The position numbers were made by a program, and so were the translations under genes. Shown one piece after another: positions 482 through 46,599 of a stretch of 64,000 nt of DNA. Under the pieces are notes generated by a model, which searched no databases, was not told the DNA's origin, and was given only the letters and a program-made list of their open reading frames with translations. This stretch comes from an uncultured Verrucomicrobiae bacterium. Its GTDB lineage: Bacteria; Verrucomicrobiota; Verrucomicrobiia; Limisphaerales; UBA11358. The stretch lies in the NCBI GenBank assembly GCA_963789335.1, contig CAWBKH010000001.1, positions 307,304 through 371,303 of the forward strand. Direction: 5' to 3'. Position 1 is the first letter of the stretch. Every line of letters starts with the position of its first letter.

Positions 482-2866
482 CTACTGTCTTAAGAGCCGA
501 TAAAACTCCGTCGCTCCGCTGATGGCGTTGGTGTAGGGCGGAGTCGCGCCATTTACACTCGAGTAAGGCCCGCTGACACTGGTTGAATCCTGGAGTGTGC
601 CAGTGCCCGCCGGCCAATTGAGAATCACATCGCTGCCCGACTGGACAATCGTGAGGCTTACCTCATTCAAGTAATGCGTCTGAACCTGCTGCGGCGTGAG
701 GGCATAGTTGTAAACCGCTGTATCCTGCATTTTGCCGTCGAACGCGCCGAATTGATTGTCGGTGCGTTGTCCCAGCACAAAATTGCCAAGAACTCCGGGG
801 TCAATCCCGGCGGTGCCATCCTGGTTGATGCCATCGCCATTGGGGATGAAGTTGACGCTGGCAACCGGGACTGGAGCCACGGCCAACACGCCATTGATGT
901 AGAAGTTGAAGTTCGTGCCGTCATCGGTGACGACCAGATGATACCAATCGCCCGCGGTGATGGAGCCGGCCACGATGAACGCATTCGCCGGCTGTGGCAC
1001 AAATGCAAACGTGTGGCTCGGTTGCTGGTAAAGATACCAGCCGTTGTAGGGATTGGGATAGAGATTGTACTGAGATGAAAGCACCACACTATATTGCCCA
1101 TTGGTAGTGTTCCACAAGGAGGGCTGAACCCAGGTTTCGACCGACCACGAAATGTCGGGATTGAGCTCGGGCGCCCACGGGATTTGCACGGTTGCCCCTG
1201 GCGAACTTTGTGGCGTGCTTACGTTCGAAAAGTCCACAGCGGTATTTGTGTCATGTGGAATACCGCCGATTAATCCGCCCGTGAGGTTGCCGCCGTTGTT
1301 GGTCACATAGGTGCCATTAAAGCTGCCCACCGCGTCCACCGCTGTGCTGCCGTTGATTGGGTTTGGCTCATTCAATTGCCAAAGAGCCACCGGTTTGTCA
1401 GCTGCGACGAGGGCAGCGTAACCCGTGAGCGAAACGCTGACAGGTCTGGGCTGGACAGTCAAAATAGCCGGAGATGTCGTTGAAGATTGGACCGGACCGG
1501 TAACCAGCACTTCATACTGATAGCCGTTTTCAGCCATTTGGACATTGGACAGCCATAACGTTTCATTGGTTGCGCCCGCAATTGGTGTAAAAGTGCTTCC
1601 TCCGTTAATGCTTTGAGACCATTGATAGGTGATCGGCGTTGCGCCGCTAGCCGTGACATGGAAGGCAGCGTAGCTCCCGACGTCGCGTGTGATGGATAGG
1701 GGCTCGCCATTGATGAACAGCGCACCGGCAACCGTCAGGGTCGCCACCTGGCTCGTCGAAACACCGGCGCTGTTGGTGACCACCACGAAGTAAGTCGAGT
1801 TGTTTTCCCCGCCGCTCGCGGTAAAGCTCAAGTAACTGTTGGTGGCATTCGCATCGGCAACGTTGTTTGTGTACCACAAATACGAAAGCGGCGTGCTTCC
1901 AATCGCGATGGGATCAAACGCCGCCGTGTTGCCGGCATTGACCGAAATGGAAGCCGGATTGGAATTGGTCGCGCCGAGGTCCACCAAAACACTCGCAGGC
2001 TCCGGATTGGTCGAGAAGGCATTGGTTCCTACTTCATAGTGTGTCAAAACCTGGGTCGCGCTGAGCGCATTGGTGTAAATGGCCACTTCGGAAAGATAAC
2101 CCTCAAAGTTGCCCCAGCCTGTGGGCGGGTCGCCATCAATATACAGATCAGGTGGACTCGCTGTGTTGGCTGAATTGTTGGCCAGATAGCCAGCGGCGGA
2201 GACAGTCGCGGTTGCCACGCCATTGATGTAAAAAATGAAGTTGGTTCCATCATAGACGCCTACCAAGTGCGTCCACTGGTTCTTGACCACCTGGCTGGTC
2301 TGGATGAAGGCCCCTCCGGCGGATCCCAAGCTGGGGTTGAACACCCAGCTTCCGGGCGATCCCGCCGAGCCGGGCGTCTGATAGAAATCCCAGCCGGGCT
2401 GGGCATATGCACCGCCGCTGCCCAACGGAACAGTATAATCGTTGCCCCCGCCAGTGTTGTCGCTGGTCGCGCGCGCCCAGAATTCCACCGAGAATGGGCC
2501 TTGGGGATTCAGCACATCGCTATGTCCCACGTCCACGTACGAAGAATGGCTCTGAAAATTGATGTCGCCATAGTTGTGGAACAGATAGGCGTTGGTGTCC
2601 ACGCCGGGCACACCCAGCACCGGATAGTCTGGATTGCTGTTGATATCGAGATCATAAGCGATCCCGCCGTTAAATCCGTTTCCAGTAGAATCGACCGCAG
2701 TGCTTGCACCCGGCGATTCGTTCAGCTCCCAGAAGGCGGCCGGATGATCCGCCATGATGGTGGAGTGATAATCCGCGCTGGCCGTGCGCGTGCCCAGTAA
2801 TACGAATGCCGCCGCCAATGGCAGCGTTGCGAGCCTCCAAGTGACCGACTTTATTGTTGATTTCAT
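482..2866 (-). CDS. Secreted protein: LamG-like jellyroll, 2x Ig-like, LamG-like jellyroll, C-terminal FYRL-type domain
   Basis: Signal peptide; LamG motifs ([42 protein letters not shown]); Ig repeats (PLSYLW, PITYQW); ends EFYRLLRQ. Confidence 0.85.
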
Positions 2867-3001
2867 ATATCTTTTAGGTTGTTTGTTTGCATGAACTCCC
2901 GGTCCGTTTTGCTGTCCAGATTAAAACCAAGCGTTTATATTGCCCGTTTTATCTCTGTCATTCATGCGCCTACTATAGAATGTTTTCCCCGGCTTCGTCC
3001 A

Positions 3002-3019
3002 TCCCCCTGTTTAGGGGGA
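3002..3019. promoter_or_regulatory. Palindromic operator candidate TCCCCCTGTTTAGGGGGA
   Basis: CCCCC-N6-GGGGG inverted repeat about 140 bp upstream of the LamG gene; a second copy lies at 5250. Confidence 0.5.
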
Positions 3020-3089
3020 AATTGGACAATGCGATCAGGTTTGCACCGCATTGGGGACTCACGAAAGCAGCGAGTGAGAAACGTTCCGA

Positions 3090-44316: not shown

Positions 44317-44337
44317 AGAATCATCTATCCATGCTGA

Positions 44338-44390
44338 CGGCACTTGCTCGCGAGTTGGGCGGTCATGCGCGCGCAAGTGCCGGTTGTTTT
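44338..44390 (+). terminator. Probable terminator/stem-loop
   Basis: CGGCACTTGC...GCAAGTGCCG followed by GTTGTTTT. Confidence 0.5.
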
Positions 44391-44553
44391 CAGCACTGGT
44401 TGACGGAATTATTCATTGGAGCCAAAGCCGCGCTTGAAGTTGACCAAATCGAATCAGACCTACCGGTGGCCTCTCGGGTGTGCCAGAGTTTTCCTGTATT
44501 GCTGAGGGGGGCCGGAGATCTGGCCATCTGACAAAACCTCAGGCATTAAATTT

Positions 44554-46599
44554 ATGAGGAAAATCATTTTGTATCTGGTTTGCTCCGTGCTGCTTTCGCT
44601 CATGGCTTTCACGGCCAAGGCACTCGATCCCAGCCTGCCGCCGGGTGGCAACTTTGATTTGAGCCATTGGTATCTCCAACTGCCCACCAGCGGGGGCGTG
44701 CTCACCGGTACGAGCGGGACTGTGGATTCGGCCTCCAGCGCCCAGCTTGTGGCGGGTTTTACCAATGCTTATTTCTACACCGGACCGGATGGAGCGATGA
44801 CGTTCTGGGCGCCCGATAACGGAGCGCGCACTGGCGGCTCCTCTCATCCGCGCAGCGAGTTGCGGGAAGAGCTGGTGCCGGGCAACACCGGGGTTAATTG
44901 GACCCCTTACGGCACACATGTCATGACCGCCACCTGCGTGGTGTCGAACGTGCCCTCGGACACCCAGAAGGTCTGCATCGGCCAGGTCCACGAAGATGCG
45001 GGCGGGGGAGTTCCCATGGTAATGATAATGTATTCTACCACATCAAGTGGCCTCTATGTGGACTATTGGTCTGACGGAAATGTGAACACGAGCGCGTCAT
45101 GGAAATATGGGAGCTTTCCGATTGGTTCCACCATCAATTATCAAATAGACGTCGTGAACGGCGTGTTATCGGTCGCGATCAATGGCATCACCAATTCGTT
45201 GGATCTTTTCAAAAATGGTGCAAACTGGACGAACTTCGCCAACGCGGTTTATTTCAAAGCGGGAGACTACAATCAGACCGACAACACCTGTGACTGCTCT
45301 AACGACGGCGCACAAGTGGCCTTTTATTCCTTGACCCATTATCACGCGCCGAGCATCACGAACCAGCCGGCCAGCGCGACGGTGAATGCCGGAACTAATG
45401 TCACGTTCACCGTCGGCGCGTTGGGCAACGGCACTCTGTCCTATCAATGGTGGTTGAACGCCACGAATCTGCTGACTGGAGCCACCAACGCCTCGCTCAC
45501 CATCACCAACGTGTCCGGCACGAACGCCGGCAATTACTTCGTTGTGGTCAGTGACAGCACCCCATTCTTTAATTCCATCACCAGTGCCGTCGCCAGCTTG
45601 ACGTTGATTGGTCCTGGAACGACATACACGTTCACCACCCCCGGCACCACGACGTGGACGTGTCCGGCGGGCGTTACTTCCATTCAAGTGGAATGTTGGG
45701 GTGGCGGCGGTGCGGGAGGAAGTGCGATCAGAACCCCGAATTCCGGCAGTGTCCAGTACGGCGGCGGCGGTGCCGGTGGGGCTTATGCCCGGGAGAATTT
45801 TTACACGGTGATTCCGGGGAATACCTATTACGTCACTGTCGGCAACGGCGGGTTGGCGGCCACGGGCACGCTGGTAAATGGCGACAAGGTTCCGGGTGGT
45901 GACTCTTGGTTTAACTCCGTCAACTCGGAGCCGGTCGGCGTCGGCAACTGCGTTGCCAAGGGCGGCGACGGCGGCGAATGTGCGGTGGGTGATACCAGCG
46001 CGACGGCCTTCGGAACCGGCGGGGTCGGCACAACCAACGCAAGTCTCGGTGATGTCCTGTTTTCCGGCGGCAGTGGCGGCACGCAAACCAGCACCGCTAA
46101 CGGCTATGGCGGCGGCGGCGGCGGGAGCGCTGGACCAGGTGCTGCTGGAAATTCCGGCAGCAGCGTGAATGGGGCGGGTGCGGCGCCCATCGCTGGCGGC
46201 GGACCCGGTGGGAATGCAAACGCTACGCAAGGTTCTTCCGGGCCTGGCCAGACGCCCGTGTCCGGTCCCGGCGGCGGCGGCGGCGGCTGCCGGGCAACCG
46301 CGCAACAAACCGGCGGCAATGGTGCCGCGGGTCAGGCGGTTCTGACCTGCCTGAACAGCACTGTGGTGTCACCAGCCTTTACTAACTTGAGCATGGCCAC
46401 CGACCGAAGCGCGTTCACCGTCACCGGGACAGGTGCGGCGAATCAAGCTTATGTGCTGCTGACAACTTCGAGCCTTACGCCGCCGGTGACTTGGACGCCC
46501 GTCGCGACCAACAACGCGGATCCTAATGGCGTGTTCAGCTTCACCGACTCACAAGTCTCGAACTTCACACAACGCTTTTACCGGGTGGGGACGCCGTGA
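44554..46599 (+). CDS. Polysaccharide lyase family 7 with Ig, glycine-rich domain and FYRV-type C-terminal domain
   Basis: PL7 motifs FDLSHWYLQLP, PRSELRE, IGQVH, YFKAGDYNQ; ends RFYRVGTP. Confidence 0.88.
   Translation: MRKIILYLVCSVLLSLMAFTAKALDPSLPPGGNFDLSHWYLQLPTSGGVLTGTSGTVDSASSAQLVAGFTNAYFYTGPDGAMTFWAPDNGARTGGSSHPRSELREELVPGNTGVNWTPYGTHVMTATCVVSNVPSDTQKVCIGQVHEDAGGGVPMVMIMYSTTSSGLYVDYWSDGNVNTSASWKYGSFPIGSTINYQIDVVNGVLSVAINGITNSLDLFKNGANWTNFANAVYFKAGDYNQTDNTCDCSNDGAQVAFYSLTHYHAPSITNQPASATVNAGTNVTFTVGALGNGTLSYQWWLNATNLLTGATNASLTITNVSGTNAGNYFVVVSDSTPFFNSITSAVASLTLIGPGTTYTFTTPGTTTWTCPAGVTSIQVECWGGGGAGGSAIRTPNSGSVQYGGGGAGGAYARENFYTVIPGNTYYVTVGNGGLAATGTLVNGDKVPGGDSWFNSVNSEPVGVGNCVAKGGDGGECAVGDTSATAFGTGGVGTTNASLGDVLFSGGSGGTQTSTANGYGGGGGGSAGPGAAGNSGSSVNGAGAAPIAGGGPGGNANATQGSSGPGQTPVSGPGGGGGGCRATAQQTGGNGAAGQAVLTCLNSTVVSPAFTNLSMATDRSAFTVTGTGAANQAYVLLTTSSLTPPVTWTPVATNNADPNGVFSFTDSQVSNFTQRFYRVGTP

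Follow-up and report, generated by a model that had tools for sequence, protein, structure and literature searches.

A fibronectin type III homologue without a G strand closes unrelated, predicted exported proteins in Verrucomicrobiota

In the window analysed here, a stretch of 64,000 nucleotides (G000:C1:307304-371303) from the genome of an uncultured Verrucomicrobiae bacterium (4.35 Mb in 13 contigs, 92.8% complete), one domain family closes five open reading frames (ORFs), namely 482-2866(-), 33134-37147(+), 39835-41367(+), 41421-43301(+) and 44554-46599(+). Each of the five tails is a copy of the same autonomous domain, about 60-73 residues long, and the conclusion that this module is homologous to the fibronectin type III (FN3) domain but ends after strand F, the G strand being missing, is well supported. 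Concerning its role, the sequence data lead us to propose, tentatively and with somewhat less than even confidence, that the module may be a terminal, non-catalytic docking or retention domain and not a cleaved secretion signal.

The original prediction, made from the letters of the window, had described a shared C-terminal module on five signal-peptide proteins with unrelated cargo. So as to avoid circularity, a hidden Markov model (HMM) was built from 25 copies lying in the genome outside the window, and this leave-out HMM matched the C-termini of all five ORFs with E values from 2.5e-21 to 1.3e-3, which bears out the shared module. Their similarity is thus not a matter of chance. In the five ORFs an aromatic-aromatic-R-[LIV] motif lies 3-4 residues ahead of the stop, and at least three subtypes of the module can be told apart. 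The long 'W-P ... W' subtype, of 73 residues, ends the double-LamG protein 41421-43301 (43080..43298, + strand, leave-out HMM E 2.5e-21; this copy was used for the structural model) and its truncated paralogue 39835-41367 (41146..41364, + strand, E 5.6e-21, envelope aa 438-510 of 510). The short 'PYTN' subtype, of 62 residues, ends the LamG-Ig protein 482-2866 (485..670, - strand, E 7.4e-8, envelope aa 732-794 of 794), in the rest of which Pfam gives Laminin_G_3 and Ig only, and the GH2/LamG protein 33134-37147 (36959..37144, + strand, E 1.2e-6, envelope aa 1276-1337 of 1337); these two tails match each other in phmmer at 7.2e-10. A divergent 'NFxQRFYRV' subtype ends the PL7 alginate lyase/Ig/Gly-rich protein 44554-46599 (46381..46596, + strand), downstream of the Pfam domains Alginate_lyase2, Ig_3 and Gly_rich_2, and is recognised by the leave-out HMM at a borderline E of 1.3e-3. 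When this PL7 tail was used as a phmmer query, 17 other ORFs of the genome were matched, and among the matches listed there are 8 distinct ORFs (of the 'RFYRV' subtype), all matched at the ORF end.

The cargo of the five proteins is indeed unrelated, comprising LamG plus Ig, GH2 plus LamG, two LamG domains (in two proteins), and PL7 alginate lyase plus Ig and a Gly-rich domain. The presence of a signal peptide, however, could not be upheld for ORF 39835-41367, a paralogue of 41421-43301 whose N-terminal truncation has left it without one. For the GH2 protein, position 33275 had been taken as the start of the ORF, but the longest ORF begins at 33134 and 33275 is an internal ATG; a plausible signal peptide follows it, and it is the probable start of the protein. 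The original prediction had also spoken of six copies; genome-wide profile searches found no sixth copy in the window, where there are five. The same searches agreed with it in finding the GH20 enzyme, the GH2-like protein, the second alginate lyase and the second GH2 of the window to be without the module, and the absence of a transmembrane (TM) helix was confirmed too, there being no hydrophobic run of more than 3 residues in the five tails. A search for related loci with the 41421-43301 protein found no relative. It should be noted that the GH2 protein carries, upstream of its tail (aa 1102-1174, window 36437-36655), an apparently complete FN3 domain ('...TYYYTVSAATSIGAASETANSATEVSV'), which matches the module profile weakly (iE 0.024).

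The fold was studied with a profile and alignment of 30 module copies, called A2 here. With the 30 copies as input, the AlphaFold2 (AF2) model of the 41421-43301 tail is a six-stranded all-beta domain (pLDDT 91.2, pTM 0.76) whose final strand occupies residues 68-72 of 73. The FN3 relationship was settled by profile-profile comparison with hhalign, in which A2 aligned over 69 columns with the six FN3 repeats of the database protein P0020 at a probability of 95.8% and an E value of 6.9e-9. Columns 3-73 of the module correspond to FN3 positions 3-74 of 91, and therefore the last 17 FN3 residues, that is the FG loop and the G strand, have no counterpart and are missing. The conserved positions of the module (W, Y/F-x-LQ, W and F-Y-R-L) coincide with the FN3 core, including the F-strand 'YYR[LV]'; 'FYRL' is therefore the F-strand signature of FN3, and the stop codon sits at the end of strand F. 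Tandem arrays of 2-13 module copies occur in other organisms and run to the C-terminus, with linkers of 2 residues in the median, and so the family as such lacks the G strand; the stop codon is not the cause.

In a structure search the top matches were FN3 domains of cytokine receptors (Z 7.2, 6.8 and 6.8, with about 70 residues aligned over 85-90 of the target); none of the 48,161 chains reached Z>=8, and the Z scores of the module lie in the range that the tool calls a common arrangement. Foldseek gave nothing in the PDB at E<=1e-3, its top rows being FN3 domains of myomesin, Dscam and titin (E 0.07-0.3). In Pfam and NCBIfam no family was found for the tails, either with the whole proteins or, in Pfam at E<=10, with the isolated five tails and the 30 A2 members, which returned one-off chance rows; the original prediction, too, had named no characterised system for the module. 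The Pfam fn3 model (PF00041) matched neither the 30 A2 copies (E<=10) nor the five window tails. The 30 nearest clusters in the ESM Atlas are all labelled 'hypothetical protein' and have no Pfam family, Verrucomicrobiota being the commonest phylum among them. In the literature, the titles and abstract beginnings on C-terminal, sorting, surface-display and FN3-secretome subjects in Verrucomicrobia(ota), and on FYRL motifs, contain no description of this tail.

Part of these results bears on the idea that the tail is a carbohydrate-binding module (CBM), binding the substrate polysaccharide or the cell's own exopolysaccharide as FN3-like or Ig-like CBMs do. Glycoside hydrolases, lyases and lectin-like proteins are frequent among the carriers, and the CBM56 and GNBP3 beta-glucan-binding domains show a weak resemblance of fold (Z 5.6, 5.5 and 5.1, of which 5.6 and 5.5 belong to CBM56). 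Searching the PDB by sequence gave nothing below E 0.013, and the best rows were discoidin/CBM32 chains of glucanase/chitosanase (E 0.013-0.06), which cover only 41 profile positions. The co-occurrence with the exosortase system, described below, would also suit a CBM, that system being said by Haft and co-workers to go with exopolysaccharide loci. The same tail, however, is carried by proteases, a cyclophilin, RCC1 and FGE-type proteins, the Z scores do not leave the common-arrangement range, and no Pfam CBM family matched any of the 30 A2 copies at E<=10; the match to a known CBM which, by the terms of the original prediction, would have spoken against it did not appear. A carbohydrate-binding role of this kind seems to us improbable.

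With the five-copy profile, a search of the genome gave 57 matches. An iterated HMM drifted, gaining a few discoidin-like 'RYVR' matches and losing the short subtype, and the union of six profiles combined with a motif filter was preferred; in a six-frame search of 23,302 ORFs it brought the total to about 147 motif-bearing domains in 140 ORFs. The end of the domain lies at most 5 residues from the stop in 119 cases, 6-15 residues from it in 9, 16-50 in 2 and further in in 17. As a whole, the module is terminal in 128 of the 140 ORFs, and in these 128 terminal domains the four-residue motif is followed by 3 residues in 54 cases, 4 in 43, 2 in 11 and 5 in 9, a short stretch that is simply the remainder of strand F. 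In 12 of the 140 ORFs every copy is N-terminal or internal, and six ORFs are multi-copy. Among the 12 are three FGE-sulfatase (formylglycine-generating-enzyme-like) proteins, C2_833545_834828(+), C2_1490645_1491802(-) and C10_32863_35739(+), which carry the module directly after the signal peptide, i.e. at the N-terminus instead of the C-terminus. Signal-peptide-like starts, called with a crude heuristic, were found in 85 of 117 module ORFs of at least 250 aa compared with 671 of 2226 control ORFs. The expectation that matches across the genome would be strictly C-terminal and accompanied by Sec signals therefore holds as a strong tendency, with 128 of 140 terminal and signal peptides enriched, but not strictly, given the non-terminal and multi-copy ORFs here and the tandem arrays elsewhere; internal placement, which would speak against a terminal tag if frequent, concerns a minority of about 9% of the ORFs.

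The proteins that carry the module are large (median 579 aa). For 22 further copies the cargo includes RCC1, cyclophilin, FGE, LTD, FG-GAP, apiosidase-like, S8 protease, GH53, GH30 plus CBM6, PKD/Ig and MBG/YDG domains, with no Pfam match in 7 of the 22. Module genes are neighbours of one another 28 times, compared with a mean of 9.7 after shuffling. There is also a family of small proteins of about 150 aa, C1_165851_166297(-), C1_144233_144682(-), C1_146780_147244(-) and C2_1505732_1506211(-), which consist of a signal peptide, a conserved head ('YSIDWYKVSGGGG...GTIGQHDAGG...GGFWAL') without Pfam match and a single tail module; the database protein P0002 has such a head followed by six tandem modules. 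A further protein of 1576 aa, C7_85536_90266(+), contains at least 8 repeats in tandem, each about 100 aa long and with weak similarity to tails of the short subtype (phmmer E 2.2e-4), and its C-terminus reads '...RFYRSLYVQ'.

This placement has to be considered together with the possibility that the module is a passive structural domain, a lineage-specific FN3 variant that would serve as a spacer or as a solubility or stability cap and have no targeting or binding role. The FN3 homology, the coincidence of conserved residues with core residues, the tandem arrays resembling ordinary FN3/Ig stalks and the occurrence at either protein end agree with it, as does the failure to find a partner or machine among those tested. 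Many paralogues of the cargo are also tailless: out of 111 cargo queries, 62 had a paralogue aligned to the cargo end, and for 35 of these 62 it fell into the class 'other', a class that includes some short-subtype tails missed by that profile. Yet a spacer would be expected between domains, and the module is the last one in 128 of 140 ORFs; the small proteins comprise little beyond signal peptide, short head and tail; a bona fide anchor, PEP-CTERM, is replaced by the module in paralogues; and tail genes selectively precede pilin-like genes (in 13 of 137 cases, while 4 of 599 other genes with signal peptides do so; see below). A purely passive domain is in our opinion unlikely, although of the alternatives to docking it is the least so.

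The replacement is seen in the window itself. The LamG protein 43405-44316 (43405..44316, + strand) is a paralogue of ORF 41421-43301, with 35% identity (E 7e-31) up to the junction 'QFD(T/A)L', and after its last LamG domain it runs into a PEP-CTERM signal (Pfam and TIGR02595 matches) where the paralogues carry the module. Elsewhere in the genome the PEP-CTERM protein C6_125300 has two paralogues that bear the module, at 54% and 38% identity. A small PEP-CTERM protein gene lies directly upstream of the GH2 ORF and overlaps it (32343..33146, + strand; PF07589 and TIGR02595 at aa 243-264 of 267). The five tails themselves gave no PEP-CTERM match in Pfam or NCBIfam, the two true PEP-CTERM proteins of the window being separate genes. 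The genome has 43 PEP-CTERM matches and 2 exosortases; its PEP-CTERM proteins are small, with open frames mostly of 200-330 aa, and their genes are neighbours of module genes in 10 of 45 cases (shuffled mean 3.3).

Outside this genome, it is well supported that the family is very large, unannotated and centred on the Verrucomicrobiota. Searching 1.84 billion proteins with A2 gave 37,042 cluster representatives at E<=1e-3, 6,773 at 1e-10 and 68 at 1e-30. In a panel of 301 genomes of the phylum the module was detected in 98 genomes and in 62 of 149 genera, and its presence follows clades, with 17/21 genomes in clade f4, 9/9 in f25 and 5/5 in f28 compared with 0/48 in f20, 0/21 in f27 and 0/22 in genus g6. 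Among named genomes, the numbers of matches were 119 in a Pedosphaera metagenome-assembled genome (MAG), 20 in a Limisphaerales MAG, 2 in a Coraliomargarita MAG and 0 in an Opitutaceae and a Methylacidiphilum MAG; none was found in the five genomes taken from other groups, i.e. three Planctomycetota (Kolteria, Schlesneria, Gemmataceae), one Chitinophagaceae and one Haliangium. Where matches were sampled, the module ends at the stop in 19 of 20 in the Pedosphaera MAG and in 18 of 20 in 14 further genomes.

The same panel was used to look for a machine that could read the tail. Exosortase (PF09721) is present in all 98 module-positive genomes, and the module is present in none of the 81 exosortase-free ones (98/0/122/81, Fisher p = 2.6e-17, a figure inflated by relatedness); of the candidate systems tested, exosortase alone covers the whole distribution of the module. 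The type IX secretion system (T9SS), whose C-terminal domain had been suggested by the original prediction as the analogue of the tail, was ruled out. TIGR04183, the model of that domain, has no match in this genome at E<=0.01 and 79 in the Chitinophagaceae genome used as control; Por_Secre_tail (PF18962) matched none of the five window tails and 30 A2 members at E<=10; the translocon protein SprA (TIGR04189) has no match in this genome or in the module-rich Pedosphaera MAG and scores 2376 bits in the control G304; and hhalign of A2 against 20 T9SS type A C-terminal domains of the Chitinophagaceae genome gave a probability of 0.3% and an E value of 0.2. The Verru_Chthon cassette was also rejected as the machine, its protein A passing the cut-off in only 3 of the 301 genomes, this one not included. 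Secretins and prepilins do not discriminate, since each of the five module-rich genomes examined has them.

A true sorting or export tag would be a tail read by a dedicated machine of the outer membrane or envelope, the cargo being exported or covalently anchored and the tail perhaps removed, as is the case for the T9SS C-terminal domain or PEP-CTERM. The extreme C-terminal position in 128 of 140 ORFs with a fixed tail of 2-5 residues, the enrichment of signal peptides on unrelated cargo, a count per genome resembling that of T9SS cargo, the positional swap with PEP-CTERM and the exosortase in every module-positive genome are all in its favour. On the other hand, copies also occur at the N-terminus, internally and in tandem, the conserved motif does not extend beyond the FN3 core, TM segment and basic tail are both missing, T9SS is absent and its domains are unlike the module, and no candidate machine tested tracks it. 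In the analogy with the T9SS tag, the similar numbers, the terminal bias and the position shared with PEP-CTERM have thus withstood the analysis, whereas no separate recognition motif emerged; and none of the candidate export machines examined tracks the module, SprA being absent, Verru_Chthon protein A limited to 3 of 301 genomes and the H-X9-DG pilins, described next, giving an odds ratio of 1.0. We consider a dedicated tag of this type doubtful.

The GH2 and LamG-Ig genes of the window are each directly followed by a pilin-like gene on the same strand. The first, separated by 373 nt from the GH2 stop, is a prepilin-type (N_methyl plus DUF1559) pseudopilin-like gene (37427..38248, + strand; PF07963 4.7e-9, PF07596 2.6e-6). 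The second, 266 nt from the LamG-Ig gene, enters the window with its 5' part (1..411, - strand; the whole gene is G000:C1:306734-307714) and has a TIGR02532 match at G000:C1:307454-307525(-), corresponding to window 151-222. In the whole genome, counting tail genes of at least 300 aa with the pilin gene on the same strand within 600 bp, a prepilin-type (DUF1559-like) gene is downstream of 13 of 137 tail genes; among other genes with a signal peptide the figure is 4 of 599, and among the rest 5 of 1101 (odds ratio 15.6). These 13 tails fall in 8 of 66 tail clusters, and therefore several independent cassettes are involved. Seen from the other side, 25 pilin genes have a same-strand upstream gene at <=600 bp, which is an HMM-defined module gene for 10 of them and, for 3 more, a gene ending in 'FFRLVKP' or similar; a module gene is the immediate neighbour of 15 of 30 pilin genes, with a mean of 2.3 and a maximum of 9 in 500 shuffles. 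In the Pedosphaera MAG, where 119 module and 73 prepilin matches were paired by hand, 13 module matches are followed by a prepilin motif within 67-295 nt. None of 20 sampled tails in 14 other genomes showed this link, and in the phylum panel the module and the H-X9-DG pilin occur together in 39 genomes, the module only in 59, the pilin only in 81 and neither in 122 (odds ratio 1.0). The pilin link is local and not general across the phylum. As a universal reader of the tail, the DUF1559/H-X9-DG pilins are ruled out by this odds ratio, and the module-rich genomes G071 and G137 have no PF07596 match.

We return to the docking or retention role proposed at the beginning. After Sec export, the module would keep enzymes and lectin-like proteins that are otherwise unrelated in place at the cell envelope or in its matrix, and it may do so by binding a common partner, which could be a protein pairing with the exposed edge of strand F or an envelope glycan; functionally it would be parallel to the PEP-CTERM anchor of the paralogues. 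Such a role would also account for a module that works at both N- and C-termini and in tandem. Docking is favoured because placement at either terminus, tandem arrays and the lack of a signal beyond the fold are what one usually sees in accessory docking or retention modules but not in cleaved C-terminal signals, and the PEP-CTERM swap together with the strong terminal bias suggests something more than a spacer. That a partner would complement the open F-strand edge with a strand of its own is speculation.

Several considerations weigh against this proposal. The conserved positions are those of the FN3 core, and so the sequences suggest no evident conserved binding surface; no partner has been identified among the candidates tested; and terminal FN3-like domains of bacterial glycosidases are often mere spacers. 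The list of tandem arrays is biased, since the best 150 of the 37,042 cluster representatives were ranked by summed score: among the 149 of them re-detected by our own profile, 148 are multi-copy and the last copy is <=8 residues from the C-terminus in 134, and these best 150 include ordinary complete FN3 arrays, P0020 for example. The exosortase co-occurrence is confounded by relatedness. It is inflated because the module is missing throughout the exosortase-free clades (f8, f11, f21 and parts of f20 and f27), and within the module-bearing families exosortase is universal, which leaves no contrast. Finally, the strong C-terminal bias and the fixed tail of 3-4 residues would be expected as well if a signal were read from the C-terminus.

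A more far-reaching model can be built on the same observations. The G-strand-less FN3 tail would be the cargo handle of an undescribed display or export system of the Verrucomicrobiota envelope; a reader that belongs to the exosortase-type envelope would complete or grip the tail's open F-strand edge, and in Pedosphaera-like lineages the DUF1559 pseudopilin-like proteins encoded downstream, specific for their cargo, might take part. The reader is assigned to the exosortase-type envelope because every module-positive genome sampled has an exosortase. Such a system is, in our judgement, quite unlikely.

The window in which the tails were noticed is a polysaccharide-utilisation region, with genes for GH20, NagB, a PIG-L deacetylase, GH2-type enzymes, PL7, a PF05426 alginate lyase, UxaC and UxaE, and for transporters and two-component regulators as well; the genome contains PEP-CTERM proteins, exosortases and numerous prepilin-type genes. 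A conserved NtrC-type regulator encoded in the window has its closest relatives in Verrucomicrobiae MAGs (55%), Methylacidiphilum (50%) and MAGs of Limisphaerales and Pedosphaera (46%), in agreement with a Verrucomicrobiota genome. Immediately upstream of the truncated LamG paralogue 39835-41367 lies an IS5-type DDE transposase gene (38796..39767, + strand; PF01609 8.9e-27, DUF772 5.3e-23), overlapped by a long antisense ORF, 38754-39884(-). The paralogue search found about 19 near-identical members of this antisense family across the genome, and the insertion sequence (IS) is therefore multi-copy. Two other ORFs have no Pfam family at E<=1e-5: 16064-19540(+), of 1158 aa and with no evident signal peptide, and 21411-24170(-), of 919 aa, which resembles a polytopic membrane protein and adjoins the sulfotransferase gene 24230-25279.

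Verrucomicrobiota are major polysaccharide degraders in soil, water and guts. For keeping or releasing their many secreted enzymes they are not known to have either the Sus/T9SS equipment of Bacteroidota or cellulosomes. One uncatalogued domain that closes about 140 proteins here, and is found in 37,042 cluster representatives of public data, leaves a wide gap in annotation; with a model of the family, thousands of C-termini now called 'hypothetical' would be relabelled and the exported surface proteome of a genome flagged. If the module were truly a docking or sorting device, it would represent a new protein-localisation system and possibly a portable surface-display tag for the phylum. If it were the handle of a display or export system, the tail would be an address label for some 3-4% of the proteome, and the enigmatic DUF1559 family would gain a function. 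The question can be tested by following two leads, the repeated pairing with pilin-like genes and the exosortase found in every module-positive genome sampled.

The module may be compared with several known systems. With the T9SS C-terminal domain of type A it shares a small, all-beta, Ig-like architecture, the C-terminal position on dozens of Sec-exported proteins with unrelated cargo, and similar numbers per genome (about 140 ORFs here, 79 matches in the Chitinophagaceae genome). However, no sequence relationship connects the two and the SprA translocon was not found here; moreover the T9SS domain is single and strictly terminal, whereas the module is not (12 of 140 ORFs with non-terminal copies only, 6 multi-copy, tandem arrays elsewhere). 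FN3 itself (PF00041), which also occurs in extracellular enzymes of bacteria, has the same strand order A-B-C-C'-E-F, the Trp of strand B and the aromatic-aromatic-Arg-aliphatic motif of strand F; profile-profile homology, the best structural matches and the possibility of tandem arrays all connect it with the module. FN3 domains, though, continue with an FG loop and a G strand, while the module stops after strand F, is mostly the very last domain of its protein and is detected by the Pfam fn3 model in 0 of 30 copies. The PEP-CTERM/exosortase system (TIGR02595 and PF07589; EpsH, PF09721) resembles the module in occupying the same position in paralogues, and both are present in this genome; but PEP-CTERM, a signal in three parts (motif, TM helix and basic tail), measures about 24 residues and sits on proteins that here are mostly of 200-330 aa, and the module, which folds into a domain of 60-73 residues and has no TM segment, sits on proteins with a median of 579 aa. 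SLH, LysM and dockerin domains are non-covalent anchoring or docking modules that are found on unrelated exported proteins at one terminus or the other and often in tandem, and in this placement the module is like them.

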